From Lytechinus pictus (lineage: Eukaryota): a stretch of 64,000 nucleotides of DNA. Position 1 is the first letter of the stretch, and each line of letters begins with the position of its first letter. This document shows, piece after piece, positions 33,601 to 63,505 of the stretch. The notes below the pieces were generated by a model. The model was not told the DNA's origin and ran no database searches. It saw nothing but the letters and a program-made list of their open reading frames with translations. The stretch covers positions 28,460,001 to 28,524,000 of the forward strand of contig NC_087251.1 of NCBI RefSeq assembly GCF_037042905.1, written 5' to 3'. Made by a program: the position numbers and the translations under genes.

Positions 33601-36600
33601 CAATGTATATACTTTTTTTTATTCATTCAGGCTGCCAAGGAGATTTTAGATAATGCCGAGCCTCTGCCACCAAGAGTAAGAGATGCGTCTATCAAGTTAG
33701 TTGAGCATATGGCAACTCAGCCTGATGAAACCCACCCAGTCAGCAAAGATATGCAGGAATCTCTGGATAGATACCACAGGTAAACTAAACAATCTTCAAA
33801 TTTGTAATTTTCTTACGCAAAAATCTGTGCTGCATCTTTTAACAGGAATCCCACTACAAAGACATAGCAGCTTTCCCTGTATTCTTCATTACATTGTCTC
33901 TGATGGAATGTGGGTATTGGTTATGAAAAGCCGCTTGCACTTGCAGGATTGCTGCAGAAAAGATGTGGCTTCGACTTTAGGCAAGGTGTATTAGTATAGA
34001 TACAACAGGTGCACAGCAGATTTCCATAACCGGCATTGTTTTGTCTATCTAAAAAATGAAAGATTAGAGTGCAAATCCATAAGATGTGTACATTCAACCC
34101 CCTACTGTGTATGTCTCCACTTGTGCGTCATATGAAAAAGTGTTATGCTCTCAAATTATCATCGCTTGGGTAATTTATGAAGTAAAGTAATGTGGAGAAC
34201 AATAGGGGTAGCATGTTGATAAGCTGATAATCTTATGGAACTCCTATCGAATAGAAATGCACCTGACTCATTGCATAATCCATTGAAAGTGCTTTTGTTT
34301 TTTCTTTGGAAGCCACCCCCCTCCCCTTTGTAGCCACCATAGTTTATAGTGTGCTCTGAAATCAAATTCGCCTATATTAACAAAATGTTGAAACATTTTG
34401 ATTTGTCAGGTTACATGACTCTGCAACTCAACTTGAAGAAAACATTGAGAAGGAGCTGTCTGAGAGGGCAGCATTCGAAACGGAGACTGAGGAAGCGTTA
34501 GCTGATCTTATACAAGGCAAAGAAACCCTGGAGGAACAGACTGCTAGTATTGGTCCTCTTGTTTCAGATGCAGAAGATAGAATTATGACACTTGAAGTAA
34601 GATTTGCTCTTCTCTATTTAAAAATGACTTCTTGTGCTGGAACTAATTTTAAATGACTTGGTTTGTGAGGATGAAAATTACTTTTATTTGGATCACTTTG
34701 CTGTTTATCTGAGTTTAGTAAATTGACTAAACAGGAAATATATGTGAGAGATATGTGTTTAAATAACTATTTTTTTACCAGGAAATAATGAATACTCCAA
34801 AGACCTTCATTACACATCTAAAACATTTTATAAAGTAAAGTACTTGGAATCATTAGAACTTAGATGCATTTTTAAAGTCATATCATTACTACAACATGTA
34901 TTTCCAGGTTTATCATTTACAATATTATGATTTTCCTAGTCTTTATTTGTCGACAACTTGTTATTCATTTACTTCAGGTTGTGAAATCAGAACTCCAGCC
35001 AAAACTGGCACATATTGACGAGCTGTGTAACACACAACATCAAAAGTACAATGACCTTCACTCAGTACCTCCATCTAGCATATCTGAGAAACTTGAAGAC
35101 CTTCAATCACAGAAGGCAGAGATGAACAGTAAACTAGACTCCACCATCCAGGAGTTGAATGAGGCTGAGAAGATCAGACGTCTATTCCAGCAACAGACAT
35201 TTGATGTGGAGGAGGTCATAGAAAGAGCTAAGGAACTGTTGAACAAACCTATCTCGGATGTTCCCAATGCCAAAAAGGAACATGAGGTAATTGCTCTCTC
35301 TTGTGTGTTTTTTTTTCACTGTTAGTGGTTTGTCTTGTATAAGTAAGTGTTTTACATTTATCCCTATTTTTTTCAGTTTGAATCTTGGATAAGTTTATAA
35401 TATAAACTTATATCATGTAATGCAATATGTGAGGTCGTATGTGTTTGATATTATGACCATGAATTAAATCTTTGGGCTTAATCTCTGTATCGGTTTCCAT
35501 TTAATCTTTGTCTAGACCTGTGTTATAAGGCCCTTAATAGTTGAAAGTAGTTGTTGCCAAAATTTAGACACAGAATACCTTGATAGATGATAAAGGGTAT
35601 TGCTATTTCTTTGGATGATTTTGTTAACTTACGAAATATATTTCTTGGTCTATCACCAATGACAGGATTTAAAGGAGTCTTTGAAGTCAGCTCAGTTAGT
35701 GATGCACTCTGTCCAGAACATTGCCCAGCAACTGACTGACCAGACCAACAAACCAGATGAACGTCGAGCTGTCATCGCTACCATTACATCCCTTCAGACC
35801 AATCTAGCAGAGGTCACCCACACAACTGACCAGATGACCGATGAACTGACCAAAGCTATCGAGCCATGGAAACAACACCTGAGTGCCAAGGAAGCTGTGG
35901 AAAGGTGGCTTGATCAAGGGGTTGATACAGTGAAGCCTACCTTGAATCTTGGTAGTATGCCCACAGTCCTGCGTCAACTACAGGAACACAGGGTCAGTGA
36001 AGCCACATTTTTCTTTCCTCTACCATATTTTAGATATTGTTTTAAAAGATGTATCGAGCTAGTTCATTGTAGTTAGCAGAGAAATTATTAGCTTAGTATA
36101 TGTTGCATTCTAATGATTTGTGATAAAATGCCTATACAAGAAAGAAGGAGCCACCTTTTGACTATGATATTTGTCGTTTAAAAACATATATTTCAATTTT
36201 GTAAATTTCTGTATTGGAATTGAAACAATATGTCTGAAAGTGCTTTTTTCTGCAGTGACATCAGAACAAAAATTCCAAATTATATCTTTAATTAATAATT
36301 ATTATCTGAAATTATTAGATTTCATTATTAATTTTTACAAACTTAGGCCTTACTAGAAGATGTGCCATACACAGTGGAAAATGTAGAAGCCTTGATGTCA
36401 TCAAGTCCTATTCTCGCCAGAGTTCTGAAGGACCCCACTCACCAGGCCAAAGCCGATGACCTGAAGAAACACTTCCAGGATATGATTGACACTGCCCAGG
36501 AACGCAAGGAAACACTGGAGGATGAGACAAGGAGATGGCAGAACTACCAGGGTGGTCTCATGGATCTGTTCCACAGGATTGCGGATGCCAAGGATATGAT

Positions 36601-39600
36601 GCTCTCACCAGACATGGAGCAAATGACGCTCAATCAACAGCTAGAAAATCAGAAGGTATTGCAACAGAAACTTACTAGGGGTCCATTTCATTTAAGAGTT
36701 ATAACTATGGTAACTTTGCCATTATGGAAACTTTGCTTCCGAAGACGACCACAACATCACTTTGATTGTAACAGGACTTGGCAGCCTATCAAAATCAAGA
36801 TTTCCCTTGTAGTTACAATAATGGCAGTTACCTTAGTTGTACTCTTCATGAAACGGGCACAAGGAGGAGAGCAGGATGGTGCTTTAATCATGTGATGACA
36901 AAAAGGAGGAAAAAGAAGAAATAAATGTAGAGAAGGGATGGCTTGATCATGTAACAAAGCAGTGCATATTTTTTTTATAAAAAGAAATACATTAATTCAC
37001 CTTTGGCTCATTTTGCCTCTTCACTCTAATGAAATACCCTGCTGACTCTTCTACAGGAAATGTTTCATAAATGTCTTGTCAGTGATTTTCCTGGACCAAT
37101 TTGCTCTCTGTCAATCAGATGTAAGGATTTCAATGGCTTTTAATGGTTTTCATTGAAAGTCATTGGGAAGACACACTATGAAATAATCCTGAGAAATTCC
37201 AGATAAATTCCATTTTTAAGATGTCAGTTTACTATTTCATTTCTAAATGATAGGAGGTTCTTGAGAAGTTAGAATCTGCCAGCAAGCGTCTAGCTGACCT
37301 GAACGATACCCACACACTCCTGGCCCCTAACTCATCCGATCAAACAAATGAGCTTGATGGTGATGAGGATGAGGATGATGACACCGAGAAGGAGATCAAA
37401 GATCCTCAGTTGTTAAGCTTACAGGAAAATATCTCCAGGATCAAGGATGTTGCTGTACAGCACGGTGAAGTCCTACAGAAATCTCTTGTGCAACAGGTCA
37501 GTGGTCCTCTACCTCTTTAAGATGAAAAGAAAATGAAATCAATCTCATATATCTGGCTCTAAATATTCAGGATCTACAGTTAATCTAAATGCGGGTAGAA
37601 GTATCTATGATGAATCAATTGATTACTCCATTGATTTGTCTTTGAATGGGGAGTTTCCGCTGTCTTCCATAGTGAATACTATTGTATGAAAGTTGGCAGT
37701 TCTGCATAATGTGTACTGTTATAGATTGACTGTTTGGCCCTAATTTATAAAGGAGGTTTAAACCTCATCCTAGCTCTTTTAAGCATGTGCACACACTGAA
37801 TATGATCAAATTGATTTTCTGTAAAGCCACATATCGATGGTATGCACTCATTCACATTCACTTTAATGCACTTTATGAGTATTGATGTTCTGTACCCTTT
37901 CAGGTTTAATATGAATTGGGACCTTTTTGATTATATCAAAATGTACATATAGAAAGGATTTGTTTTCCCGTCCTTTTGCAGGAAGCGTATGAGAAGCAGT
38001 TGGAAGTACTAGAAGTTAAGTTGCAGACAGCACAAGATGCAATGGCTTCACCGGTAGAACCTACAAGCATGGAACAACTCAAAAAACAAATAGCACAACA
38101 TAAGGTACATCTTGTATTTTGCTACTAGCAAAATTAACCATTTATGTTTGGTACCTGAGCACGTTGCAGATATCCTGATATGCAATCTGACATTAGTTCG
38201 ACTTTTGCACTTCACACTTGATAGATACTGCCATTCCATTTTTATTGGACAGAATATATATTGTGAAAAGTAGATTCAAGTGGTGGATATACTTCCTTTT
38301 TTCATATGAATTAGGTATTGGTGGATTAAATAATTCTCAAGGGATTTTGAATTTGAACATCACAGCAAATACAAACGAGATATTAATTGCGTTTAAATTG
38401 ATCTGATGTTGCCATTGTTGGAAAATATGTCTAAAACAAATATCTCACGCTTATTATTTTCAATTTTCATTTGTTTCAGGAACTTGCAGTGGAAATTCAA
38501 GGATATGAAGATGAGATTCAGGCCATCAATAACAAGACCCAAGAGCTCCAGGAGGAAGCAGCTAAGAGGACAGACTTCAGGCAGACATATCTTTCCACCC
38601 TCACCCCTCCTGGACCACCTATGGTCGCAACTCCAGAGTTTGGTGTTGGTGCTCGTTTAGTGAGGAGAGGTTCACCTATAAGAACTCCATGGAGATCATT
38701 TTCTCCAGAACCTATGCAGACTTCATCACCAGAATCAAAGAGGCCTCATGGTGATCTTGACCTCACTGAAGAGCAGCCTCCAGAGAAAAGGGTTCTTTTT
38801 TATGACGATCCTTCATTAGCAGAAGTACATTATGAATGCCCCAGAGATGAAGTTGACAGTTCACTGGTACCTCCCTCAATGTCAGGTAAAGACAGCAAAA
38901 TGTCAACAGAAGATATGTCAGAGTCACCTAAACAACCTTCAAAGAGATCTTTTGATGATAGCGAACATGAACAGTCACCTAAAATACTTGCCACATCTAC
39001 ACCTAGACCAGGTTCTGCTGACAAACATTTGGATGATTCAGATCCTGAAAAGACTATCTCGTCCAAAGGGTCATCAGACCCTTCTAAACAGGTACCATTT
39101 CAAATTATCACTGACAGGGGGCCTGCATTTGTTCTTCGCCCGGCAGGCTCCAGTTCCATAATTGGACAACCCGGAGAGGATGGAGATGCACCCGGTGGAG
39201 GTGATCATCAAACCCAATATGTCATACAGCAAGCCACACCATATCTTTCTCCTGTTGTTGTTCAGAGGGTGCCCATTACAGAAAGTATTTCACCAATGAT
39301 GGTCATTGATCCAAAAACAGGCAAGACCATGGAGGCTGTACCAACTGACAATGTGGATGATATAGAGAATAAAATAACAGCTTATATGGTTGACCCTGAA
39401 ACAAAAGAATTGGAAATACTTGATCCTGAAAATAAAGTAGCAGTTGTGGCAAAACCTTGTGAAAGTCCAGAGAACGTTCCTTTAGATGAAGTTGTTGTTC
39501 CATTAAAAGTCAAACCTGTAGAATTGGCTCCAGATTTGATGAAGAGTTTTCATACCTCTGGGCCTTATGATCTTGATAGGTACAAGGACCTTGAAGGTAC

Positions 39601-42600
39601 TGATGGTGACAAAGGACAAGCTTCTGTTCAGAGACTGAAAGAGGAAGGTGATGTTGATGGAGGAACAATAGCTGATAGTGCTCATGGAAGTAAAACACTT
39701 CATGTAGGCTTACCTACCAGAGCCCCAACAAAAGACATGATATTGTCACTACCTTCTGATAAAGGACCAGCTGATGTTCGGATTCCTACAGAGCGTGATG
39801 ATACAGATAGTGCTAAAGTATTTGACAATATTGAGAGTGCCAAAGAACCAGCTAACATTCAAAGTGTTAAGAAGGGTTATCAGCCTAGTCTGAACATCGG
39901 GCAACAAGAGGAACAAGATATATCTAAAGAGCCTTCAAGGGACTTACCAGTTACTCAGACATATAGTGGGGAGCAGCCATTGCTCCCATATATGGATGAT
40001 ATGGATGCAGAAATATCCGAATTAGGAAAAAGTAGTAAGAAACCAGTTACTGATCTGCACCAATTGGTAACCACCAAAGGACCTGCATATGAATTGCGAC
40101 CTCTTGACTCAGACTCTAAACCTTCAAATCGTGGAACAGATGGTCTCTCATTTGGAGCCTCTTCAGCAGACCCTGTACCTAAACAGTACACTGTCTCAAA
40201 GACGACTCACTTTGATGGTGTTCCTGAAGTGGTTGGTCATGCTCCTGTGCTCAAGGACCAACGTCCTACACTAATCAAAGACCCATCATCAGACCAGATC
40301 TTAGAAGCTGTTCCTATAGTTGATCCTAATGATTTGAAGAATAAGGTCACCGCATATGTACAGTCTGATCCACAAACAAACACCTTAGAAATTATTGATC
40401 CTCAGCAGGGGCAATCTTATGTGGCCAATGCTGTAGATCCTGAGCAGTTTGATGACAGCACTTCACATTTGACCATGTTGGATGAAGATAAACCAGCTCT
40501 TCAGCTTGAAACAAATAAAGGGCTTGCATATGTATTACATCCACTGAATGAGGAAAAATCACCCATGAAAGACATCTATCCTGCAGGAAAGAAACCTGAA
40601 CAGAAGAATGCTGAATTCACCATTGTTGATGAAGCAAGACCAGCAAATACTGTTCTTGTTACAGGTTCAAGAACATCACCTGGCATCAAGCCAATAGAGA
40701 TCATTGATGAAGTTTCAGGGCAGAAATTTGTTGCAGAACCTGCTACTAATGTTAATGATCTGATGAGCAAGCCCGCACTTTACCTGCCAAAGACAGCATA
40801 TAAGGTCAAATCGGTGGTGATATCTCATCCTGAGACAAAAACAGAAATAGTTGCAATTCCAGCATCAGACCAAAGTGAGAACGACCAACCATCAAATCTT
40901 GGAAGTAGTAATCTTCTTGGTCCAGAAAGAGACCAAACATTCATGAATATTCCTAGTGCTATCACCTTAAAATCAATGAATGTTCCTGTTGTAGATCATC
41001 AATTTGGCCATCCTGATCCAATCAGTAAAGCATCAGCAGTTGTAAGAGAACCCATTACTCATCAAATTGTAACTGATCATGGGCCAGCATATACCCTCAG
41101 GCCTCTTACTGCCGTTGGTGGCCCAGCAGCAGGTGATGATGATCCAGATGTGGATTTTGTCCTAGCCAGCCAAGGACAAACAGATGAACCTCCTGTTGTC
41201 ACTGGGGAACAAGAGCTTGATTCGCTGATTCAACCAATACATATTAAAGATCCAGAATCTGGCCAAGTTATGGTTGCTGAACCCATGACAGATATGAATA
41301 ACCTCAGTGGAGTGCTTGCTGTGATTGATAGTCTTGATGGTAACCCTCAAATGACCATCTATAATCCTACAACAAAGAAGTCTGGTGTAGCACTGCCAAC
41401 AGAGCAATATTGCCCTCCTTCACCAGGAGTGACCCCTTACTTCAAGGAGGATTCAGATTTGACTCCTGATGAATTGGTAACAAAACCAGTTAGCGAAGTT
41501 GGCGAAGTTCTACAACAAAAACCTGTTACTTCAGGACAACAGATTCCAGCACAAGATGTGAATAAGCCTGTGAGGATTGATGATGCCAGAGGCAATATAC
41601 AGGACGGTGACAGCAGCGATGAATCTCCCCATGAAAGAAAAGATTCTGGATGTCCCTTGTTTTCACTGTGTCCTGTTGAATCAACTCCTAAATTAGATTA
41701 TAGGTTAGAGCCATCTCCTGGTGCAATTAATGTTAATGAGAAACATTCAACTGAACATCCTCTTTCATATCTTCATGATGGTTCTGATAAATTTGAAGAA
41801 TTATTGGGTAAGCCTGCTTCCAATCAGGTTTTGACATCGCTCGGACCTGCATACTTCTTGACCCCAGTTGAATCATGTGGAGACAGCAAATTGCAGTCTA
41901 AAGATAATGACAGTGTACCTCTCCTTGTTACAGATCCAAAGCCACTGAACACCCTTCCAGTGGTTGTTGGATGTGAACCATTTCAAAATGGAGGTTTCTT
42001 TGTTGAGGATCCAGTGTCTAAGAATACATTCAAAGCAGAGCCAGTTCACAGCCTAGATGTTTTACATAGTAAACCAACTGTCTTTGTAGATGATCCAAGT
42101 AAACCCGTTCAGATCCATTTTCCAGATGCATCGGTTATACCACCAAATACAAATGCTGATGAAGATGGAGTAAAGAAACTTCAGTCAGATAATTTCCTCA
42201 CTCCATCTCAAACTCCTTCAGGAAAGTCACTTCAACCTGAGTGGGTAAATCAAGACAATGCAGGGCCAGGCAGAGAAGAAAGGGACACACTTTGTCAAAC
42301 AGAACTGGACCATTCCATGCTAGTAGAAGACATGGATAGTGTATTGACTATTGACAGTGGAGCTGATGAGGCAGATAGAGCTCTTGTTCCTCAACCATCA
42401 AAGAAAAACATTCTACCAGGGAAGGTCAAGCATCAACTCATCACTGATATTGGTCCTGCCTTTATCCTTGTTCCTGAAGACAAGTTAGGAAATGGGGGAG
42501 ATGGGGGTGGAGGATCCTCCACTCCTGATGAGTACATATTAGCCACATCTTCAGACCCAGCAAATAAGCCATCAGTGATCGGTTCAAAGCCATTTTCACA

Positions 42601-45600
42601 GAAGGAACCATTTGTGGTCAAGAATCCCAGCACTGGGGAAACTTTCAGGGCTCTCCCTGCAGAAAGCCTCCAAGACCTTCATGAAAATCCATCTCTGTAT
42701 GCCATTGACTCACAAGATGTTCCAAAGGTGAAAGTTTTTGATCCTTCAACTGGCTGCGCATCTGTAGGATTTGGATCAAGGGCACCAGAAGTTAGAACCT
42801 TGTCACCATTATCAGAATTGAATGAAACTCAACCAGTTTCACAGCTTTTGACTAATAAGGGACCAGCGTATGTAATGCATCCATTTGCTGGGGAAGGTTC
42901 AGGTGTGCAAAGTGTCTTATCTAGAGGGAGGATACCTGAACCAGAGAGCACAGATTACACTATTGTTAATGAAGCAAGACCAGCTAATCCGGCTGTTGTG
43001 ACAGGCTCAAGAATGTCAAGTAACATCAAGCCGATAATGATTCTAGATGAAGCCTCAGGGCAGAAATTTGTTGCAGAACCTGCTACTAATGTTAGTGATC
43101 TGATGAGCAAGCCCACACTTTACTGGCCTGAGACGACAGATGTATACAAACCAATGCTGATATTCCATCCTGAGACTAGAACAGAAATAGTTGCACTTCC
43201 GACATCTTGCCCAAGTGAACTTGACAAAAATCAAAATTTTGAAAGTACTAACCTACCCATTACAGGGTCTGCTGTTGAACGAGATGGAGACCAGTCTTCT
43301 AGGGATATACCAAGTGTTATTACCTTGAAAGGTAATAACCAGACTGATAGCCAGACTGATCCAAACAGTCTCTCTGATATATTCCAGAAACCAACTATTT
43401 CACCATCAGAAAGGTTAAATAAACCTGAACGGATAGAAGAAGATTATAACAGGACACCCAACATCGGAAAGGACGCGCCTCATCATATGGGACTACACAG
43501 TTCTGTGACAACATGTGAAATGGATAGCATGTCAGATGACAGTGATGTTGATGAGGAATTTGATGGTCTTGTTCCTCAACTATCAAAGATAAACACGCTC
43601 CCAGGGAAAGTCAGGCATCAGCTAGTCACTGATATTGGTCCAGCCTATACCCTTGTGCCTGAAGACAACTTAAAAAGTGGGAGAGATTGTAGTGGAGGAT
43701 CCTCCACTCCTGATGAGTACATATTAACAGCATCTTCAGACCCAGCAATTAAGCCATCAGTGATTGGTTCAAAACCATTTACACAAGAGGAAAAATGTAT
43801 TGTAAGGAATCCCAGCACGGGAGAAGCCTTCATGGCTGTCCCTGCAGAAAGCCTCCAAGATATTAATGAGAATCCATCTTTGTATGTGCTTGATTCACAA
43901 GATGGTCCGTCGGTGAAGGTCTATGATCCTTCAACTGGCTATGCGTCTACAGCATTTGCGACTACTTTACCAGAAGTGATTGTTACTCCGGAATCACCCC
44001 AGCTAGATAAAATTAGGCCAGTTCCACAGCTGATAACAAATAAAGGACCTGCCTATGTGCTGCAACCTCTCTCTGAAGATACTACAACTCCTCAAGATCT
44101 ATCATCTATTGGGAAGAAACCAGAACATGAGAATGCAGAGTACAAAATTGCAGATGAAGCAAGACCAGCAAATGCTGCTGTTGTGACAGGATCAAGAACT
44201 TCAGCTGGAATCAAGCCAATAGAGATTCTGGATGAAGTTTCAGGACAGAAATTTGTTGCAGAACCTGCCACTAATGTCAATGATCTGATGAGCAAACCCA
44301 CACTTTATCTGCCAGAGGCAGCTGATCTGTCTAAGCCAGTGGTGATTTTCCATCCTAAAGCAAGTACTGAAATAGTTGCATTTCCAACTACACCTCAACC
44401 AAGTGAATTTTCTAAACAACCATTATTTGAAAGCACGTTCCATCCCGATTCTGAGGGTGTTATGGCCCCACGAGATCAGTCTCTAGGTGATATTCCAAGT
44501 GCCATCACCTTGAAATCAATGAATGTTCCTGTTGCAGATCATCAATATAGCCAGCCTGATCCAAACAGTCAAATAACACAAGACATGACAGAACCCATCA
44601 CTCACCAAGTTGTCACTGATCATGGACCAGCATATACCCTGAGACCATTCCCTGAATTTGGGGGACCAGCAGCAGGTGATGATGATCCAGATGTAGATTT
44701 TGTCCTTGCCAGCCAAGGCCAATCGGAAGAGCCTCCTTTAGTGATCGGGGAACAGGAACTGGAATCCCCCATCCAGTCTTTGCATGTTAAAGATCCTGAA
44801 TCTGGTCAAGTTATGGTTGCAGAACCCATGACTGATGTCAATGACCTTACTGGCGTGATGGCCATTGTTGGTAGTGATGATGGTAACCCACAAATGACTA
44901 TCTATAATCCTGCAACAAAGCAGACTGGAGTGGCTGTGCCAGCAGAGCTATATCATCAACCTTCATCAAGAGGAGGTCCTTCCTCCCATGATGATTCAGG
45001 AGTAACTGTGGATAAATCAGTACCAAAGCCATCGACATCAGACCAACAATCTCCTACGCAAGCTGAAAGGGACCCTGCCAAGAGAATGGATGATTCTCCA
45101 AACAAACTCAGCAGTGGTGAATCCACTGATATAGCTTTACATGAAGAAGGTGAATCTGATCCCAAATCAGCAGTTTGTCCCTTGTTTTCACCCATTCCTA
45201 CTAAAATGAATGCATTGGAGTCACCTGCACAGCATAATGTAGCCCCTGAGGATTTGGCTCATGGAAAAGATGAACCTGGTAAACCTGCCTCCATTCAGAT
45301 TTTAACATCCCTCGGACCTGCATATGCCTTGACACCAGTCGAGGAGCTGGTTGAAGCTGGCAAAGTACATTCACCAAGTGACAGGGGACAGCCCAAGAAA
45401 AATGACAAGGCAGATGCTATGCCCTGTATCTTAGCAGATACAGAGCCTCTGAACAATCTTCCAATGGTTGTCGGATCAAGACCAGCACCAGAGGTGAAAA
45501 GTTTCCTCATTGAGGACCCTGTCTCTCAAAAGACATTCAAAGCAGAGCCAGTTCACAGCTTAGATGTTTTACACAATCAGCCAACTGTATTTGTTGTTGA

Positions 45601-48600
45601 TACAAGTAAACCTATTCAGATTCATTTCCCAGATTCATCATCAACAACGCCAAATAAAAACACCAATGGAGATAGGAAAGAGGGATCTCTTTCAGATATT
45701 TTCCAGATACCAACTGAGATTCCATTAGAGAGGTCACTTCAATCAGAAGAGGATATAAAGTTTTATGAAGATGAGTCTAGGGAAGGAGATGAAAGATCTC
45801 ATCAAAGACCTCATTCCACCTTACTGATGCAAAAGAGACACAGTTTATCTAGTGACGACAGTGATGCTAATGAGGAATGTCTTGTTCCTGATCCTCATTC
45901 ATCAAAGCGAAAGGTTGTTCCAGAAATTGTCAAGCATCAGCTCGTCACCGATTTAGGTCCAGCCTATATCCTAGTACCAGAAGACAGTGTTGGATATGGG
46001 GGAGATGGAGGTGGAGGATCCACTTCCCCAGATGAGTACATTCTAGCCACATCTTCGAATCCAGCCAACATGCCATCTGTTATTGGTTCACAGCCATTGT
46101 CACACAACCATCCATGCATTGTCAGGAATCCCACAACAGGAGAGACTTTCAAGGCTGTACCAGCAGAGAGCGTCAAAGATCTGAATGAAAATCCATCTCT
46201 GTATGCCATTGATTCCAAAGATATCCCTGCAGTGAAGGTGTTTGATCCCTCAACCGGTTGTGCATCTATTGGAGTTTCAGAAAGTGTACCAGAAATTGAG
46301 GAACTTGTGAGTGAATCAAGATTAAAACCAGATAAGACACCACTGACATTCAGTTTTCCAGCTACTGAGCCTGCAGTTGACAAGCGCACTAATCAGAATG
46401 ATCAGCAATATGACAGTAATAATGCTCCTCGTCAGTCTCCCGGTGTAAGCGGTGATAGATTATTTCCAGAGAAGAATAGACAAGAAGATGACTCCACTCA
46501 CTCTGATGATGATGTATTTGAGATTGACAAACCAGAACCCTTAGAGCCAAGTGATGAATCAAATTGGGATACTCATACTGCCACAGATGTACCATTTTTA
46601 CTTGGCTGGATGGAAAAGGAAAACAAGAAACCTATACCAGAATCTCAGCTGGATTCCGCATCAGTTACTGCAGGAACTCCTCGATCAGTGCCACCAGTAG
46701 AGCAAATCCTCACTGACAGAGGTGCTGCATATGTTTTGACTCCTGTATCAGAGTTAAATGATCATGGTGGTGCTGCTATTAGTGGATTAGGGGTGACTGG
46801 TGCAACTCCTGGTGCTGGAAGTTCAACTCTTGCCACATCGCCAGACTATATCATTGTAGAGGATACAGAATTGAAGAGATTACCAGTTTTAACGGGCACT
46901 CAGCAAACAAGAGATGTAGCTCCTTTTTTCGTCAGAGATCCAAAGACAGGTCAAGACCTAGCTGCTATTCCAGCCACAGAGCCAGATGACCTGCAAGGTC
47001 TTGTTGGATTTACAGATGATCCTAAGGATGATCCCTTGATGATACAAGATATGCAAACCGGGGAATCGATGATTGCACTTCCAGCATACCGGATCCCTGA
47101 TGAACTAGGACAGGCTCAGTCACTCCCACCCAGGGATTCAGGCTTTTACTCGGGACCAAGCAGTATGGCAGTTACTGATGCAACATTGAAGGATACTACT
47201 GATTCAGATGATAGTTCGGTAGATTCTCTTCCTCACCATTCCAAATCAGACATACCACATTCATCTGAATATGCTGAAGTGCCACTGAAGAATTTACCAA
47301 GCATAGAGGATGTTCCAGATGAACACTATCACACTGATTCCACTGACTTTTACACTCCTGATGGATCACCAGTTCCATGGCAGGCAAAACACAAATCAGC
47401 TCCACAAGATCTTGACCTTCAAGTCTCATTGCCAGATGAACGTAAATATGAACCCGTTGTTTCTGCTGCTGATCTCCTAGATCAAACACTGCAGATTCAA
47501 CCTGTTGTAGTTTTGCAGAAGGATTCATCACCCACTGAAGAGACTCCCGGTTTGATGGAAAAGGATAACCATCAAGGCACAACTAATAAAAGTCCTGCAG
47601 AAGCTAAAGACACATCTTCAAAAACAGTGAATGCTTCTGCAGATGATGAGCCAAAAACATTGTCACAGGATATGCCACTTCCTGTTATATGCCATGAGGG
47701 CTTGATGGGAGATGTGAAGGATCCTTCTGCACCAGATGGTAAAGCACAGAAGATAGACCAACTCAATCGCTCATGGGATGCTCTACAACATAAGGTAAAT
47801 TTGATTAAACTGCAAATTTAATATATGAATAAATTAAGTTAACTTTATAGCAAATATAAAATTGTAAGTTTGTGTAAAGGAAAACAAGACTTTGAACTAT
47901 TTTGGAAAGTTTACAGCACTATCATGCATTCTTTGGTTTTAAAAGTTTTGCCAGTAATATGATTGATATTACAGTATGTCAATGAACTTGTGACAGTTTT
48001 TGATACTTGCATTGAATGTTTGGTTTTCCATCAAAGTTTAGAATAAATATGCCATTAAGATTAAGTATTCTTTGACAATCCTTGGTGGAATGAGAATAAT
48101 GGATCATAGTTATAAAATGGTGATGGACCTTACTGAGGTATTATTGTGGGTTCAAAAGTTTTTGGTCTTACCAGCTGGTCAAATAGCAAATAAATTTCTG
48201 TAAAATTACTACTCAGATTGATAAATTTGCAATGATATTTGGCGCATTTGCAACCAAACTATGTTGGTAGGTTCTCTCAGTCACCACATTTTAATGTTTT
48301 TCAGGTTCAAAGAGCACCATGAAATCAATTTAGAATAAATTAACATTACTGAGAATAAGTGTTTGCAAAAGGCGATACACATTTTTTCTTTCCCATGTAT
48401 GTTTTATGTTATATAGATGGAGGAGAAGGAGCGTCTCCTGAAAGAGGCTTTAGCCAAGCAGGAGGATTACCAGAATGCCTTGTCTCAGATCAACATTCGA
48501 CTTGCTAACACGGAAGCTCATCTCAAAGAGATCAAAGACACTCCCATGGAGGCTCGTAACCTTGATGAACATATCCTAGAACTCAAGGTTGGCATATTTC

Positions 48601-50808
48601 ATTGGCTTTCATCTACTTGGTAAAAATCTATTTCCCAGACTTGGGGCATTTCATCAACATTTGGTGTTTGACTAGTAGTCAGACCTGACAACGTTCCCGA
48701 TTTTGATTGGCTTAGAAGCACAGGTGTCAACCTGTAACTATGGTTACTGTCGGATAAAACATACCTTGTTAGATAAAACATCTGACAAGAGCTGTCATGA
48801 AACACTCCCATTATCACCTTTCCTACCCTAACCTACTCAGTTCCCCATTACATAATCTGATAACTTTGCCAAGGTGATTTAATGGAATCCCTGTTTTTGA
48901 AGGCTGCTTTTATGTTACCACAGTTACTAAGTTATGATCATAGTAATATTATAGGCCTATACAATATTGCTCTATTTCATTATCAGTAGAACTCAATGCT
49001 GATGGTCCAACCATTACTATGACTAATTCGCACGAGCTTCCAGATTCCCCAAAATCTTATGACTGTGGTAAAAATGTCTGTAAAGCACTTTCAGGTGTTG
49101 TCCTTATGTAATAAGGTATATGTAAATGTGGAATTATCATCCATGTCATAAACTGGAGTTTGAATGCAGAATGTTGTTATGTTTTCATTGTAGAATCTGA
49201 TAAGCGAATGCAGTGATTTAGATGAGAATGTGAGCATGGTTGAAGAAAAAGCCACAAGGTTGAAGATTCCCCAGGACACAGTCCGAGAAACAATAGATGA
49301 TCTCAGGAATAGAGTGGATAAGATCAAGACTGATGCAAGTGCGCTTCTCAAGAAGTTACAGGTAGGAAGCCAAGACTCAATTTCATCCTACTCAAGTTTC
49401 ATCTGTTTTCTTCCTGAATAATGTGTAGCAAGGTTATATGCAATCACTCTCTGTTATATGTAGATGTTGTAGTAGTAGACTTTTGGGTCTAACTTCTTTA
49501 GCTTGGGGCTAGTCTGCCACAAAATCAGAAATCCAAGTAGATTTCTATGATGCTGAAGTAAATTTTTTTTTCTGAATATAATCATGTTCGAATTTTAGAT
49601 TATGATTATTTTGTTAGTCTTTTTCTTCCCTACAGCATTTATTTTTTTTGCAAACATCAATGTAGTTGAGGATTATTCTGATAAGAATAATTAACTCCTA
49701 TTTTCCTATTTTAAACATTATGTTTTCTAAGTTTGTTACTTTTCATTTACATTTGTTTTGTAGAAAGAGAAAGAAGATGAAATGCTTGTGAAGGTTAAAC
49801 TGGAGGTAAATCAGCAAGAATTGCAACATCTTGATGATTGGTTGACTGACTTCAACAAACAGCTTGAACCAGATGAAGAGTTAGAGAGTGGTGATGAGGA
49901 ATTAAGTGCTTCGGACATTCAGGAAAAACTCCTTCAAAATCATGTAAGAAATCTCTTAAGGTTTTTAAGTTTCTTGTCATTTTATCATCAGTTTGGAGTA
50001 TTCCACTTTTTTTTTCCATGGAACTCATTTTTCCAGGAAGGTCTTTTAAGCCTTTTCAATTTGGACATGTACTATACAATCCCTTATCATGATATTATAT
50101 ACTCTAACCACATTTTTCCTTGGGACCCAGTGAAAATCTTAGGTCATTTGGAATCCTGATTTATTAAGAAAAAAATAAATGGAATCATCAATCTGAACTG
50201 AGCCCTGTCTCACAAAGAACTGTGATAGATTCAATTCAGTCGTAAACTGAGATGATGGAAATTGTGTAGGGTAAGAGTTTTATATCAATTGCAATTAAGG
50301 TTTATTTATCACAAGACCATGTAAAACAGGGACCTGGAATTTTAAGCAGTTTCCTTTTGATTGACATTACGTAGCATAGAACCATTTCTCCACATCCTGT
50401 CTGGTTATCACTGACAGTTTCCTCTTTCTTCACATCCAGAATCACCAGTTGGAGTTGAGTCGCAAGCTCCAGAAACTGAACAACATTGAAGAGAGCATTG
50501 AGCAGACCCTGGATGCAGCCACCTGTCAGATACCGGTCCTGGCAGAGCACCTTGACACCACCGTACGGCACCTTCACAACCGCATGGATACCTGTAAGAG
50601 AAACCTGGCAGACCAGAGGGAACACCTTAAGATGCTGCTGAACACCGAGCGGCTGGCTCAGGAGTACCAGAGCGATGTGGCCAAGCTCCAGGATTGGCTG
50701 GAGCAGCATAGAGGCTTGATGTCAGCACCGGAGGGAGGAGTGACTAGCAAGTTGCCGCCTGTGGAAGTTGGAGCTGAGATGCTGCAGCAGCAGGCTGAAC
50801 TACAACAG
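527..50808 (+). CDS. SYNE1: Internal part of a giant spectrin-repeat protein gene, nesprin-1/MSP300-like (45 exons, 6,257 codons in window; both ends outside the window)
   Basis: Chain of AG/GT-bounded exons with matching phases encoding helical repeats of about 107-109 aa with conserved W (WL/WM) and a recurring T(S/T)xxGQxxI motif. The flanks of the giant exon resemble vertebrate nesprin-1 as I recall it. The symbol is an inferred orthology, not a search result. Confidence 0.8.
1321..1476 (+). CDS. exon 2 (CIQQDIQRH...EKDCQ)
   Basis: ttttcag / CAG|gtgagt; 156 nt, phase 0-0. Confidence 0.9.
2349..2513 (+). CDS. exon 3 (DCACKQSDM...IITFK)
   Basis: gaacag / AAG|gttctg; 165 nt, phase 0-0. Confidence 0.85.
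3598..3924 (+). CDS. exon 4 (DLQTEKAAC...LKKFK)
   Basis: gctttag / AAG|gtatca; 327 nt, one repeat long. Confidence 0.9.
4446..4601 (+). CDS. exon 5 (AVHDELADQ...LLKTK)
   Basis: tttttaag / AAG|gtaaga; 156 nt. Confidence 0.9.
5162..5314 (+). CDS. exon 6 (DAVKVSEHM...STQLK)
   Basis: ctaaag / AAG|gtaaat; 153 nt. Confidence 0.85.
5599..5781 (+). CDS. exon 7 (ELQKCESIG...LQDFQ)
   Basis: ttttacag / CAG|gtatga; 183 nt. Confidence 0.9.
6331..6471 (+). CDS. exon 8 (ACLALWDQA...VDHCK)
   Basis: atacag / AAG|gtgaga; 141 nt. Confidence 0.9.
7115..7267 (+). CDS. exon 9 (RIEGTVNEK...QQRCQ)
   Basis: aatcag / CAG|gtgaga; 153 nt. Confidence 0.85.
7882..8200 (+). CDS. exon 10 (DNVILAETR...SALND)
   Basis: tttttcag / ATG|gtgaga; 319 nt, phase 0-1. 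Confidence 0.9.
8564..8736 (+). CDS. exon 11 (DVKGVQTLL...MENDK)
   Basis: cttttag / AAG|gtaaat; 173 nt, phase 1-0. Confidence 0.9.
8753..9230. mobile_element. Non-autonomous TIR DNA transposon (PIF/Harbinger-like MITE), short copy
   Basis: 22-bp TIRs aggtggtttcaaaccgcctcga and tcgaggcggtctgaaaccacct (1 mismatch); same family as 23102-23946 in the opposite orientation. Confidence 0.85.
9646..9801 (+). CDS. exon 12 (KFLAEVRSK...LQNAQ)
   Basis: ctacag / CAG|gtcagt; 156 nt. Confidence 0.9.
10193..10357 (+). CDS. exon 13 (DVVKRSEED...LDALK)
   Basis: atatag / AAG|gtaggt; 165 nt. Confidence 0.9.
10769..11095 (+). CDS. exon 14 (PVLDSMNDV...LEKRK)
   Basis: ccttcag / AAG|gtttgt; 327 nt. Confidence 0.9.
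11749..11904 (+). CDS. exon 15 (ALEREIIAH...LKKAQ), absent from the ORF track
   Basis: atacag / CAG|gtaagg; 156 nt, open frame, helical content. Confidence 0.9.
12808..12981 (+). CDS. exon 16 (TTCSELASN...LAKQQ)
   Basis: ccttgcag / CAG|gttagc; 174 nt. Confidence 0.9.
14506..14805. mobile_element. MITE; degenerate relative at about 11980-12275
   Basis: 20-bp TIR tattctgaagtggggtttaa and ttaaacccgacttcagaata (1 mismatch); both copies share ccatggtct...ctaaaattatg and aaaccagagtt. Confidence 0.7.
15002..15158. mobile_element. Short MITE family (gggcc.gtttcat...atgaaac.g.cc); close relative at 36678-36860, looser relatives at about 48640-48810 and 61385-61507
   Basis: Inverted termini; tatggtaactttg shared between the 15002 and 36678 copies. 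Confidence 0.6.
15422..15775 (+). CDS. exon 17 (SLMRELATC...VEVLK)
   Basis: Weak acceptor catcag with a ctgactaat branch-like motif; AAG|gtgatt; 354 nt. Confidence 0.8.
17137..17274 (+). CDS. exon 18 (GILDTSLMH...QIIEQ)
   Basis: atgtag / CAG|gtaatt; 138 nt. Confidence 0.8.
17688..17864 (+). CDS. exon 19 (TESQLGQTE...LKNAN)
   Basis: accttag / AAT|gtaagt; 177 nt. Confidence 0.9.
18264..18449. mobile_element. Small TIR element (hAT-like ends) inserted in an older degenerate repeat
   Basis: Perfect 12-bp TIR caggggtgtgag / ctcacacccctg; flanks atagaa / atagat; internal tttcag repeats. Confidence 0.65.
18659..18955 (+). CDS. exon 20 (SFIDDIQTH...IETLE)
   Basis: cactag / GAG|gtgagt; 297 nt. Confidence 0.9.
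20601..20877 (+). repeat. 78-bp direct duplication (20601-20678 and 20800-20877)
   Basis: Copies identical except for one c/t difference. Confidence 0.9.
21350..22375 (+). CDS. Candidate alternative first coding exon: N-myristoylation motif MGSEQS followed by about 8 short internal repeats (342 aa)
   Basis: Over 1 kb of open frame inside an AT-rich intron; gctATGg context; ends at AGG|gttagt in phase 0, matching exon 21; repeat consensus NPGN..YTVKP.VD.HGRPSR.S. Confidence 0.7.
23102..23946. mobile_element. Longer copy of the same TIR element with a Myb/SANT-like (trihelix) coding remnant
   Basis: Same TIRs and subterminal sequence; internal MTSLWSEEATKALISMWRE at 23574-23630. Confidence 0.85.
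24378..24490 (+). CDS. exon 21 (RLSMPERRR...IRKQL)
   Basis: (CT)n tract then cctacag; ACA|gtgagt; 113 nt, phase 0-2. Confidence 0.9.
24557..24683 (+). mobile_element. SINE/L2-like 3' tail remnant
   Basis: gtaaagcactt...taagcactatag followed by a (TAT/CAT)n tail; similar tails near 2135-2230, 11480-11530 and 28110-28160. Confidence 0.4.
24995..25202 (+). CDS. exon 22 (HEIREEWLS...LQQIQ)
   Basis: ccacag / CAG|gtacat; 208 nt, phase 2-0. Confidence 0.9.
25591..25791 (+). CDS. exon 23 (DSSVELAGR...VNERK)
   Basis: aacgcag / AAG|gtaaga; 201 nt. Confidence 0.9.
25830..26250 (-). mobile_element. Degenerate SINE-like remnants; similar pieces at about 780-970 and 61930-62060
   Basis: Motifs such as tacccatttacc, tcttgctgaagga and ccaaaggacac resemble reverse-oriented tRNA-derived SINE cores; recognised from memory only. 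Confidence 0.4.
26290..26412 (+). CDS. exon 24 (EFWKYYSDC...VFEAK)
   Basis: gtgcag / AAG|gtaaga; 123 nt. Confidence 0.9.
27005..27125 (+). CDS. exon 25 (ALQDQVKSY...QQKVR)
   Basis: tttatag / GAG|gtaaga; 121 nt, phase 0-1. Confidence 0.9.
27665..27870 (+). CDS. exon 26 (DLEKTFQKA...ISQHK)
   Basis: cctcag / AAG|gtaata; 206 nt, phase 1-0. Confidence 0.9.
28323..28465 (+). CDS. exon 27 (NVNDSSVSQ...QALFN)
   Basis: ttccag / TAG|gtaaga; 143 nt, phase 0-2. Confidence 0.9.
28749..28935 (+). CDS. exon 28 (RTVDSTGEK...ISTCK)
   Basis: aaacag / AAG|gtaagc; 187 nt, phase 2-0. Confidence 0.9.
30030..30335 (+). CDS. exon 29 (DLQARLDNL...LHKCK)
   Basis: cttacag / AAG|gtattt; 306 nt. Confidence 0.9.
30795..31121 (+). 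CDS. exon 30 (IALEEIICL...FTRHQ)
   Basis: caccag / CAG|gtaaaa; 327 nt. Confidence 0.9.
31669..31992 (+). CDS. exon 31 (TNQPKMNHT...LHQHR)
   Basis: atacag / AGG|gtatgt; 324 nt. Confidence 0.88.
32445..32765 (+). CDS. exon 32 (QFFSREPVY...KQLNK)
   Basis: cttaaag / AAA|gtaaga; 321 nt. Confidence 0.88.
33141..33467 (+). CDS. exon 33 (EIENILQSQ...LASVK)
   Basis: ttttttag / AAG|gtatgt; 327 nt. Confidence 0.9.
33631..33779 (+). CDS. exon 34 (AAKEILDNA...LDRYH)
   Basis: cattcag / CAG|gtaaac; 149 nt, phase 0-2. Confidence 0.9.
34410..34596 (+). CDS. exon 35 (RLHDSATQL...IMTLE)
   Basis: ttgtcag / GAA|gtaaga; 187 nt, phase 2-0. Confidence 0.9.
34978..35286 (+). CDS. exon 36 (VVKSELQPK...KKEHE)
   Basis: acttcag / GAG|gtaatt; 309 nt. 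Confidence 0.9.
35666..35992 (+). CDS. exon 37 (DLKESLKSA...LQEHR)
   Basis: tgacag / AGG|gtcagt; 327 nt. Confidence 0.9.
36347..36655 (+). CDS. exon 38 (ALLEDVPYT...LENQK)
   Basis: acttag / AAG|gtattg; 309 nt. Confidence 0.9.
37254..37496 (+). CDS. exon 39 (EVLEKLESA...SLVQQ) with an acidic DGDEDEDDD loop; absent from the ORF track
   Basis: tgatag / CAG|gtcagt; 243 nt, open frame. Confidence 0.88.
37982..38104 (+). CDS. exon 40 (EAYEKQLEV...IAQHK); absent from the ORF track
   Basis: ccttttgcag / AAG|gtacat; 123 nt. Confidence 0.9.
38480..47794 (+). CDS. exon 41: giant 9,315-nt exon (3,105 aa) with spectrin helices at both ends and 13 copies of an unrecognised ~110-aa repeat between acidic S/P/D-rich linkers
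   Basis: tttgtttcag acceptor, AAG|gtaaat donor, phase 0-0; uninterrupted 3,116-codon ORF in the track. Confidence 0.92.
48417..48587 (+). CDS. exon 42 (MEEKERLLK...ILELK)
   Basis: atatag / AAG|gttggc; 171 nt. Confidence 0.9.
49194..49361 (+). CDS. exon 43 (NLISECSDL...LKKLQ)
   Basis: ttgtag / CAG|gtagga; 168 nt. Confidence 0.9.
49764..49943 (+). CDS. exon 44 (KEKEDEMLV...LLQNH)
   Basis: tttgtag / CAT|gtaaga; 180 nt. Confidence 0.9.
50440..50808 (+). CDS. exon 45 (NHQLELSRK...AELQQ), followed by an intron of over 13 kb running off the window
   Basis: catccag / CAG|gtgagt; 369 nt, phase 0-0. Confidence 0.9.
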
Positions 50809-50946
50809 GTGAGTCAGATTGTATTTCACCAACTGTTATTGTGGTATATTAATAAATGTTTTATCCACATCTTCCCAGTAAGCAGGATTTTGATGTGATA
50901 TTGCTTGGTGGAGGACCTGCTAAAACCTGTGGCTAAGAGTACTTAA

Positions 50947-51622
50947 CCCTAAGGGGACTGGGCTATTTGAAATGTATTGAGCTCGGGGGGGGGGGGGGGG
51001 GTAGGGGGGCATGATGGGACCCCTTCTGATCTTGCCCGTCGTTCGTGCAATTGCACCGAAATATGGCACGCACATTTTTTATGAATAAAATATGCAAATT
51101 TATTAATGAAAAACATTGTTTGCATATTGAACACCAAATTTTCATCTTTTTTTTCCAAATGTCATCTTTGTAATCTTGTTTAAAGGATTCCGCAAAGAAA
51201 GATTGCAAAATTCAAATTTTTCCTAATGTATTTCTTTGTTTTCAGAATTTCTTATGTATTTTTTTTCATCTTTTGTTTTCATTGTTTTTTTTTCAATTGA
51301 AATTATTAAACCATTTAACAACTGAATTAAATCATTAATTAATTAAGTAGACCAATTAGAATAAAAATAATCATCCTTTTATGAATTGCATCTCCCATAT
51401 ACATGAAGTATAAAAATTAGCCATTTTGGGCTTAACATTCTCTTATAAAAAGTCATGTGGTGTCGCGATGCTGTACCGGTATGTCGTGAATTTGGTCTCA
51501 AAAGTTACGCAAGATTTCAAAGAAAAAAGTCATTAATTTTTGTGGCGCTATCTTTTCGCAGTCCGGAAATATTGCACAAAGCATTGAGGGGGGGCATAAT
51601 GGTTCCCCCAGTCCTTTTAGGG
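50947..51622. mobile_element. piggyBac-like non-autonomous element
   Basis: TTAA|ccctaaggggactggg ... cccagtccttttaggg|TTAA; 16-bp TIR with 2 mismatches and a TTAA target duplication. Confidence 0.75.
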
Positions 51623-51913
51623 TTAAGGCATTAACAAATTGGCATTCAATAGTATAGCACATTCCACACCCCGTTTGTTAATACCATAGTTGGTTTGTAT
51701 GTGGTTGCTATTTTTTTGTTGCCATATACCCTGTTTTTCTTTTGCTTTATTTGTTTCATTTGTTTAATTTCACCATATGGTTAATTTTACTTTTAAAAAC
51801 AAATCAATGCATTTTTCAGGATGTGTTTTGTCTAGTATTTTTGTCAATATTGTGTATGGTTTTGTCTGTGGATGTTATCACTTTATGGACTTTCAGTTAT
51901 TGACATACATGTA

Positions 51914-54623: not shown

Positions 54624-54737
54624 AATAGTGTAGTAGGTTTCACGGTACACCATGTATCTTTCTTGGGCAGATGTTGGTCCTGAAAAGGACCACCCAATCT
54701 CAGATACATGGTGTTCCGTGAAACCTACTACACTATT
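54624..54737. repeat. Inverted repeat with 36-bp arms (35/36 match) around a 42-nt loop
   Basis: aatagtgtagtaggtttcacggtacaccatgtatct versus agatacatggtgttccgtgaaacctactacactatt. Confidence 0.9.
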
Positions 54738-56043: not shown

Positions 56044-56556
56044 GTGCCGATTAAGAATAATCAGCGCCACCTTAATCTAAATCGGCGCCGGGCAAGAATA
56101 ATCAGCACTGCCAGAGTCTTAACCGGCGCCAATCAAGGATAATCAGCGCCACCTAAATCTAAATCGGCGCTATCTGGTTATAAATCGGCGCCGGTAAAGA
56201 AAAATCGACGCTGCCTGAGTTCTTACCCGGCGCCGATCAAGGATAATCGGCGCCAGTCAAGAATAATAGGCGCCTCCTGGTTCTAAATCGGCGCCAGTCG
56301 ATTATGAATTGCCGCTGCCTGAATTTTACGTGACATCTGTAAAAATAATCAGCACTACTTGTTTAAATCGGCGCCGGTCAAGACAAATCGGCGCTGCCTT
56401 TGTCTTAACCGGCGCCACCTAAATTTAAATCGGCGCCGGTCAAGAATGATCAGCGTCCCCTGGTTCCAATAAATAGGCGCCGGTAGAATAATGAAGAAGG
56501 GCCTATATTGCCAACCAAATCTTGATCGGCGCCGGTCAAGAATGATCAGCGGCACC
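56044..56556. repeat. Degenerate minisatellite built on aaatcggcgcc.gtcaagaataatcagcgcc
   Basis: More than ten ggcgcc-centred units visible. Confidence 0.85.
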
Positions 56557-63451: not shown

Positions 63452-63505
63452 ATGCTCTCGTCCCCGATCACCCCGAAGCGTCGGACTCTGGTTCCGCTTG
63501 GAAAT
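63452..63505 (+). CDS. Candidate alternative first coding exon MLSSPITPKRRTLVPLGN (CDK sites plus D-box)
   Basis: aatcATG context; locally GC/CpG-rich; AAT|gtaagt consensus donor in phase 0, the same phase as the intron it lies in. Confidence 0.5.

Follow-up and report, generated by a model that had tools for sequence, protein, structure and literature searches.

A giant exon encoding thirteen conserved modules lies within a predicted spectrin repeat of a Lytechinus pictus nesprin-1 gene

A single exon of 3,105 codons raises the question of how the rod of a nesprin accommodates so large an insert, and whether the spectrin repeat it enters closes around it or stays open as an extensible element. 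We analysed the 64,000-nucleotide stretch of DNA that carries the exon (the window), starting from a preliminary description that had placed the insert at a site where vertebrate nesprin-1 has a short disordered loop.

Results

The giant exon (Table 1) contains no stop codon and has AG and GT at its ends. Its upstream junction (38104>38480) is covered by 3 and 4 reads in two stranded RNA-seq runs and its downstream junction (47794>48417) by 3 and 0 reads, and both are also present in the contigs of two further runs. Sense-strand depth is 0.2-5 over the whole exon, similar to that over the flanking exons. These data come from 4 of 21 listed runs, with about 6% of each raw run sampled; the raw runs were chosen by species label, and because their reads share many alleles with contigs of a second organism (organism B), they may derive from a close relative of the window's species. 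In the organism-B contigs, all six length differences are multiples of 3. The exon is expressed, and the junctions at both ends, the sense-strand coverage, and the in-frame indels of the second organism rule out an artefact or unspliced open reading frame. No exon-skipping junction is listed in the RNA data, at a depth that could miss a minor skipped form; a retained intron or exitron was rejected, no GT-AG intron being listed within the exon at this low depth.

Table 1. Positions in the window of exons, helices, modules, and conserved linker motifs
Feature	Position	Strand	Basis or remark
Exon: end of preceding spectrin repeat (human SR51 equivalent), acidic loop	37254..37496	+	RNA junctions, alignment
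Exon: helix A, A-B loop, first half of helix B (human SR52 equivalent); 41 aa, ending KKQIAQHK	37982..38104	+	RNA junction, alignment
Giant exon; 9,315 nt, 3,105 aa, phase 0-0; starts ELAVEIQGY, finishes WDALQHK	38480..47794	+	sequence, RNA junctions
Second half of helix B	38480..38569	+	alignment
N-terminal linker motifs L[VM]RR.S and P.K[KR][AV][LM][FY].DD-like	38657..38809	+	conservation
Module 1, unique class	39098..39463	+	
Module 2, unique class	40058..40423	+	
Module 3, class A	40499..40864	+	
Module 4, class B	41060..41425	+	
Module 5, class C	41822..42187	+	
Module 6, class D	42431..42796	+	folded by AlphaFold2
Module 7, class A	42839..43204	+	folded in pair model
Module 8, class D	43616..43981	+	
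Module 9, class A	44024..44389	+	
Module 10, class B	44603..44968	+	
Module 11, class C	45293..45658	+	
Module 12, class D	45935..46300	+	
Module 13, unique class	46700..47065	+	
C-terminal linker motifs DSGF.S and [FY]YTP	47135..47371	+	conservation
First half of helix C, Trp common to vertebrates	47747..47794	+	alignment
Exon: end of helix C, helix A of next repeat (human SR53 equivalent); 57 aa, starting MEEKERLL	48417..48587	+	RNA junction, alignment
Three further spectrin-repeat exons	49194-49361, 49764-49943, 50440-50808	+	RNA junctions, alignment

By sequence, the window covers the central part of a nesprin-1 (SYNE1) gene, with the CH and KASH ends beyond its limits and no exon detected in it downstream of 50808. 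The flank sequences first quoted occur letter for letter. Longer flanks of the insert (364 aa left, 312 aa right) have adjacent best matches in 26 of the 28 chordate nesprin-1 records long enough to span the site (best E about 1e-16 left and about 1e-12 right), as opposed to falling on distant repeats; in the remaining two the loop is visible on inspection. Compared without gaps, helix B (31 aa) and helix C plus the next helix A (44 aa) both rank first at the orthologous site in 4/4 chordate proteins tested, which bears out the nesprin-1 orthology put forward in the preliminary description. In the manatee their scores are 83 against 58 for the next site and 108 against 60, and identity to the five proteins compared is 11-16/31 and 18-21/44. 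The human flank sequences given in the preliminary description proved correct (PMC3646009 supplement file 2). The rod around the insert is colinear with the nesprin-1 rod of divergent spectrin repeats, and 7 of 14 exons match Spectrin_SYNE1 (PF25034) with E values from 6e-6 to 0.01, none of which reaches the curated cut-off. P0016, the closest named relative, ends in spectrin repeats and has the paired N-terminal CH domains, its residues 8-295 retrieving nesprins that bear PF00307. Within a comparison set of 120 nesprin orthologues, the first-ranked matches and shared splice points make it unlikely that the flanks would align better to dystrophin, spectraplakin, or nesprin-2.

The giant exon runs from within helix B to within helix C of a single spectrin repeat, and alignment assigns the flanks to helices A, B, and C of the equivalent of human SR52. 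Since human SR53 begins at L5962 (PMC3646009 supplement file 2), the loop falls in SR52; both flanks map there, in agreement with the proposal that a single repeat is split. The distance between helix B and helix C anchors is 143 aa in human, 133 aa at the median of 25 vertebrate records, 152 aa in amphioxus, 2,092 aa in Holothuria, and 3,080 aa in the window; this tabulation across deuterostomes, suggested at the outset, upholds the expansion to about 3,000 aa, with a loop of about 110 aa in vertebrates versus about 3,050 aa here. The two ends of the giant exon match the positions of vertebrate splice points, as deduced from isoform switches in duck and arowana records. Net of helix ends the vertebrate loop measures about 100-120 aa and has a combined Ser, Pro, and Glu content of 35% across 23 records, much as the preliminary description had it, and the human loop is predicted to be disordered (IUPred 0.73 at 5857-5865; PMC5586252 supplement). 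The idea of a disordered loop stands for vertebrates but not for the insert, which is no mere enlargement of it, 51% of its length being modules. Because the conserved, alternatively spliced cassette exon 93 sits in the SR52 loop (PMC3388047), this loop is no neutral spacer in vertebrates; exon 93 bears a predicted PP2A-B' motif (PMC5586252 supplement), which has no conserved counterpart at that position in the echinoderm-type inserts compared.

Motif and HMM analysis delineated 13 copies of a module of about 125 aa, separated by acidic linkers rich in Ser, Pro, and Asp that total about 1,470 aa. A consensus is common to 81 full modules. Between internal copies, dN/dS is 0.23-0.37 for modules versus 0.63-1.18 for linkers, and identity to four orthologous fragments is 55-73% versus 33-40%. 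Judged by these values the modules are under purifying selection. The reading of the insert as a pure low-complexity chain was rejected. From a 13-row alignment of paralogues, AlphaFold2 modelled module 6 with pLDDT 78 and pTM 0.71 as what is probably a small beta-rich domain of nine strands, one short helix, and one variable loop; the same strand pattern is predicted for a second module class. Against a folded module stand the origin of the model in an alignment of paralogues, a Pro content of 11%, near the linker value, the pLDDT of 0.34 in the ESM Atlas single-sequence model of an Apostichopus fragment, and the low pLDDT of the pair model described next. In a model of a module pair (pTM 0.44, pLDDT 66) the linker is disordered, and neighbouring modules are predicted to behave as independent beads.

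Pfam gave no family for the giant exon and three chance families for 15 module alignment members (best E 0.046), a PDB sequence search gave a best E of 1.7, and a plectin repeat or other known family was rejected for want of a match in Pfam, PDB sequences, ESM Atlas, Foldseek (PDB and viral), or VIA-align; this lack of matches falls short of proving a new fold. The module profile had 15 matches among 1.84 billion representative proteins, of which 12 are module-bearing fragments and three (P0013-P0015) spurious, judged from sequence or annotation; a module outside nesprin was accordingly rejected. A word-based search of 397-2,000-aa proteins yielded 8,000 candidates and a single match, already in hand, and the module is found in none of the 120 nesprin orthologues compared. 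Nothing relevant on an echinoderm nesprin insert appeared in the literature searched, mostly outside subscription journals.

Short motifs recur in both terminal linkers. L[VM]RR.S, which we take to be PKA-site-like, is found in all four sequences covering the spot (the window, P0002, P0005, and P0016), and a P.K[KR][AV][LM][FY].DD-like motif, presumably cyclin-docking-like, in the window, P0005, and P0016, being absent from P0002. At the other end, DSGF.S, phosphodegron-like on our assumption, is found in the window, P0001, P0007, and P0018 (P0016 has DSGFEVT), and [FY]YTP in these four and P0011, being absent from P0016.

Holothuria and other relatives have inserts of this type at the corresponding site, and the domain array of echinoderm-type genes spans 2,000-5,000 aa. 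Holothuria leucospilota nesprin-1 (KAJ8045888.1) and an Apostichopus japonicus fragment (PIK52709.1) share site and module with the window. Holothuria likewise has 13 copies, but its insert is about 2,070 aa, its copies are just 22-33% identical to the window's, and it has undergone a separate recent triplication into near-identical triplets; its database annotation reads just nesprin-1. Copy numbers among such inserts are 13, 13, 16+, and 30+, in mostly lineage-specific clades, and from the sequences copy number shifts by lineage-specific duplication. Among 89 non-chordate orthologues, 55, all arthropod, terminate about 10 residues past helix B of the SR52-equivalent repeat, a count inflated because no protein in the compared sets exceeds 8,000 aa and longer isoforms go unseen (56 were first flagged; P0097, a partial record with its insect-profile best match elsewhere, was removed). 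This arthropod end matches the split repeat by profile-profile comparison (probability 99.6, E 1.9e-24, 338 columns) and is the reciprocal best site in 27/29 deuterostome proteins; one millipede isoform also terminates just after helix B. The insert site has no clear best match in the mollusc, nemertean, flatworm, and spider proteins compared.

Discussion

We lean, somewhat beyond even chances, toward a bundle that closes, with the insert projecting from the rod and serving as a multivalent scaffold and a store of length released by force. The hydrophobic core positions of all three helices are retained in the window, and the split-repeat helices are 35-52% identical to their chordate and holothurian counterparts, compared with 20-39% for the surrounding rod; this conservation favours closure. 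A worm-like-chain estimate with assumed parameters puts the effective concentration for closure at 11-44 uM, at a cost of about 4 kT above the vertebrate loop. For comparison, most nesprin-2 repeats have folding energies of 5-20 kT (PMC12846774), and the A+B and C parts of a spectrin repeat assemble between chains with a Kd of about 0.4 uM (PMC9082959). The helix C Trp is missing in Holothuria, which counts against closure. Pairing of helices A+B with C within one chain would leave the load-bearing rod continuous and project the insert sideways, where it may act as a multivalent docking scaffold, a vastly larger version of the regulatory loop tuned by vertebrate exon 93; the scaffold role is suggested by analogy and selection only. 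Because closure over so long a loop would be weaker, the split repeat may open early under tension and release several hundred nanometres of chain, giving spare length to the link from nucleus to actin.

Were the repeat instead to stay open, the insert would lie in series as a titin-PEVK-like spring of 13 beads and, when fully stretched, would add about 0.7 um to the tether. The abundance of acidic Pro/Ser-rich linker, a contour length that reaches about 670 nm while the modules are folded, compared with about 370 nm for a 74-repeat rod, the intrinsic disorder of some nesprin-2 repeats (PMC12846774), and the lost Holothuria Trp are consistent with such a spring; however, the core pattern of the three helices and their conservation above the surrounding rod are hard to explain without pairing, the closure cost estimate is modest, and we regard the spring as unlikely. 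A tolerated, largely neutral expansion, in which the loop admits any sequence, the modules fold just for solubility, and unequal crossing-over lets the number of copies drift, would account for the variable copy numbers in mostly lineage-specific clades, the near-identical Holothuria triplets, and a linker dN/dS of 0.6-1.2. We find it quite improbable given the purifying selection on the modules, the motifs conserved in both terminal linkers, the retention of the insert in lineages whose flanks are merely 31-39% identical, and the cost of a 9-kb coding exon. We are more doubtful still that the split repeat docks between molecules, A+B capturing helix C of another chain while the giant loop permits swapping and networking. 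The arthropod ends just past helix B, which resemble that of beta-spectrin (PMC9082959), and an intrachain effective concentration of merely tens of uM argue for it, but no partner helix C was found in arthropods (in the fly KASH isoform the deuterostome right-flank profile scores 15 bits at best, which is not a clear match), an unpaired A+B end may merely cap the rod, and the number of such ends is inflated.

The closest known system is vertebrate SYNE1 SR52, which shares the repeat, the flanking helices, an acidic Ser/Pro/Glu-rich loop and, by inference from duck and arowana, exon ends at the same codons. The window differs in a loop about 25 times longer, in one exon versus about three, that is filled by a repeated domain, with no skipping seen and the exon-93 motif not conserved. 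The Drosophila Msp300 PE/PG nesprins also have a giant non-spectrin region, of novel beta-rich tandem repeats of about 100 aa that is required for the perinuclear MTOC (PMC11230431). The fly comparison used D. kikkawai isoform X14 alone, in which a non-helical region of about 1,400 aa in the SR52-55 zone begins about two repeats after the window's insert site and has no module-profile match, leaving a fly insert in the same loop unsupported. The SH3 insertion of plakin SR5 and alpha-spectrin sits in the B-C loop. That case, a proposed force sensor (PMC5601466), likewise places a folded beta domain inside one repeat, but a single one of about 60 aa, whereas window-type inserts have 13-30 copies of a module of about 125 aa, unrelated to SH3, with long linkers. 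The spectrin tetramerization domain (beta17 A+B, alpha0 C) has the same A+B / C division, with its halves on two chains (PMC9082959); in the window 3,000 aa of a single chain separate them, and their pairing is putative.

Nesprins govern the reach and the softness of the link between nucleus and cytoskeleton, and this locus marks SR52 as an evolutionary hot spot: vertebrates have a short spliced loop there, arthropod chains end there, and echinoderm-type genes carry a large array. It is the one repeat of human nesprin-1 that was left out of modelling for its 'atypical length' (PMC3646009 section 5), and it carries the unexplained cassette exon 93, which may be read as a regulatory loop borne by a repeat that is weak and can be split. 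We also entertain, as a long shot, SR52 as an ancient bilaterian split-repeat hinge, with KASH-less A+B ends in arthropods, a phosphatase-docking cassette exon in vertebrates, and 13-30 beta-rich domains of undescribed fold in echinoderms, which would act as a force-gated latch releasing more than half a micrometre or swap helix C into perinuclear networks. The locus would add a new small domain for structure determination and may serve as a natural experiment on the maximum insert that a spectrin repeat can close around.

The giant exon and its transcription

From the start of the window, spectrin-like repeats of nesprin-1 are encoded by dozens of short exons, among which lies a single giant open exon (see table). 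The Pfam nesprin-1 repeat model matches 7 of the 14 exons scanned, all below its cut-off. Among named relatives, nesprin-1 proteins of sea cucumbers come nearest, with identities of 31% and 39% in the flanks of the insert, so that the gene is probably from an echinoderm.

Features of the nesprin-1 region (positions in the window)
Feature	Position	Strand	Description
Spectrin-like repeat exons	start to 50808	+	dozens of short exons
Low-complexity ORF	21296-22405	+	369 aa, Arg/Ser/Pro/Asn-rich, between spectrin exons; AG just before ATG; 84-nt repeat
Intronic multi-copy elements	36694-36840, 48646-48810, 50941-50983		both-strand reads, many loose ends
Loop of preceding repeat	37254-37496		acidic stretch adding ~25 aa relative to vertebrates; similar one in Holothuria
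Giant exon	38480-47794	+	9,315 nt, 3,105 codons, 0 stops, AG/GT ends, phase 0-0
Run X15 contigs	38480-49943		depth rises from 9 to ~47 along giant exon, remains high in later exons
Run X5 contig joint	41047-44589		jumps back 3,543 nt, the exact spacing of modules 4 and 10
Exon-free stretch	50809-64000		13 kb, no nesprin exon detected
Degenerate tandem array	56053-56295		periods 21, 41 and 103 nt; contains CGGCGCC

The giant exon is real. Of 21 listed sequencing runs, four were aligned to 34800-51000; two of these are stranded RNA-seq, of which ~6% of reads were used, yielding 218 and 301 aligned reads. The upstream junction (38104>38480) was spanned by 3 and 4 of these reads and the downstream junction (47794>48417) by 3 and 0, and both junctions were also present in contigs of the two further runs. 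Sense-strand depth along the exon (0.2-5) resembled that of its neighbors, and no exon-skipping junction or internal GT-AG intron was listed in the four runs, at a depth so low that a minor skipped form could escape. In contigs from a second organism (organism B), all six length differences were multiples of three. Many alleles are common to this organism and the raw reads, which may therefore come from a sister species. The back-joint in the X5 contig reflects either a mis-join in assembly or, in organism B, an additional copy of a unit of six modules. The depth rise in the X15 contigs might point to a start within the giant exon, but depth in contigs is a poor guide and the raw reads have no such rise.

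Elsewhere in the gene, the low-complexity ORF, for which Pfam gave no match, is possibly an alternative last exon; low-complexity tails also terminate mollusc and nemertean isoforms. The exon-free stretch may be a long intron, or may reflect divergence or an assembly problem.

The insertion site

The insert occupies the B-C loop of the repeat equivalent to human SR52. The preliminary description had given the human flanks and placed the insert at the site of a short disordered loop of vertebrate nesprin-1; these human sequences agree with supplement file 2 of PMC3646009, and both flanks do map to one repeat. The spliced flanks were compared with 120 nesprin-1/Msp300 proteins retrieved with Holothuria CH domains (the best 120 of 2,160), a set free of dystrophin, spectraplakin and nesprin-2 sequences. 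Three of its 31 chordate records terminate before the site; among the remaining 28, the best left and right matches were adjacent in 26, and the loop was visible on inspection in the other two. Each flanking helix by itself ranked first at the orthologous site in all four chordates tested. Measured from the helix B anchor Lys to the helix C Trp, the span is 24-145 aa across 25 vertebrate records (median 133; the shortest come from exon-skipped isoforms), 143 in human as counted on the PMC3646009 sequence and 152 in amphioxus; it reaches 2,092 in Holothuria and 3,080 in the window. A duck isoform switches exons exactly at the giant-exon start, and in arowana the gene model breaks precisely where that exon ends, so that intron positions look shared with vertebrates.

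The vertebrate loop is already known and regulated. In PMC3646009, SR52 was left unmodelled for its atypical length. The conserved 47-aa loop core is cassette exon 93, reported as both included and skipped in human transcripts (PMC3388047) and missing from 4 of 25 placed vertebrate records; its residues 5857-5865 in human are a predicted PP2A-B′ docking motif with an IUPred score of 0.73 (PMC5586252). Similar short motifs occur in the amphioxus loop (DSGMSS; P0020 residues 5392-5544), in exon 93 of most vertebrates (ESGEEGT) and after the last module of echinoderm-type inserts (DSGF.S). [FLY]Y[TED]P likewise recurs near the loop end, and kinship of these motifs is a possibility.

Arthropods offer an unexpected parallel at the SR52-equivalent repeat. 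The best match of the deuterostome left-flank profile extended to the C-terminus in 56 of the 89 non-chordate proteins among the best 120 of 2,160. Dropping P0097, a partial record with its insect-profile match elsewhere, leaves 55, all arthropod. Arthropod KASH-less Msp300 isoforms (records within P0040-P0132, and P0178) stop ~10 residues past helix B of this repeat and carry a conserved short tail. A millipede isoform has the same end point. Profile-profile alignment joined the insect and deuterostome left flanks with a probability of 99.6 over 338 columns, and the insect profile found the SR52 site again in 27 of 29 deuterostome proteins. In a fly KASH isoform, helix B is replaced by another exon, followed by two repeats and ~1,400 non-helical residues that recall the Msp300-PE repeats described in PMC11230431 but appear to differ from the insert in the window in both loop and module.

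The module array

Repeated domains are arrayed along the insert. A module of ~125 aa, which opens with Q..T..GPA[YF].L.P, is present in thirteen copies that make up 51% of the exon, in the order U U A B C D A D A B C D U (A to D, related copies; U, unique), with identities of 57-70% within a class and 22-33% otherwise. Between internal duplicates, dN/dS was 0.23-0.37 for modules (four comparisons) versus 0.63-1.18 for linkers (three comparisons), and identity to four orthologous fragments was 55-73% and 33-40%, respectively. AlphaFold2, run on a 13-row alignment, predicted a fold of nine strands with one short helix and a single loose loop (pLDDT 78, pTM 0.71), and a two-module model repeated this pattern with a disordered linker (pTM 0.44). 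Against a folded module stands the ESM Atlas single-sequence model of an Apostichopus fragment (pLDDT 0.34). No match was found in Pfam, PDB sequences or folds; a new fold is thus possible, not proven, and the module is probably a new domain family.

When 1.84 billion representatives were searched with a profile, 15 matches came back, 12 of them module-bearing. The named carriers are Holothuria nesprin-1, with 13 modules at the same site, and the Apostichopus fragment. Two further giant ORFs hold at least 16 and at least 30 modules; helix B opens one of them, and the other finishes on helix C at the same splice point. In a tree of 81 full modules, built on 140 columns and with many unresolved forks, most of the expansion is lineage-specific, and classes correspond one to one only between the window and its closest relative beyond the named carriers. 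The module was absent from the 120 nesprin-1/Msp300 orthologues (best 120 of 2,160). Because no retrieved sequence exceeded 8,000 aa, full-length sea-urchin, sea-star and hemichordate proteins would escape these searches.

Implications for the split repeat

In the literature searched, nothing relevant turned up on insertions in echinoderm nesprins or on repeats of this kind. Both the gene and its vertebrate loop were known before; what appears undescribed in that literature is the giant insert, together with its module and the common use of SR52 among bilaterians. The plakin SH3 (PMC5601466), likewise a domain set into a spectrin repeat, is a precedent at a far smaller scale.

Helices A, B and C of the split repeat retain the hydrophobic pattern of their core and have diverged less than the surrounding rod, which speaks for their still pairing. 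By a worm-like-chain estimate with assumed persistence lengths, closing over the insert would cost ~4 kT extra, and the effective concentration would be 11-44 uM. Set against the 5-20 kT given for most nesprin-2 repeats (PMC12846774) and the ~0.4 uM at which a spectrin A+B | C pair binds across chains (PMC9082959), closure would be feasible but weakened. That the insert is instead an open spring in series with the rod is unlikely beside the retained core, and a neutral expansion, against which the dN/dS of the modules speaks, is more doubtful still. Pairing between chains, for which the spectrin pair offers a parallel, seems the least probable of these. We moderately favor a repeat that closes as a bundle despite its insert, with the module array forming a scaffold at the side of the rod and a length reserve of ~670 nm that would be released under force.
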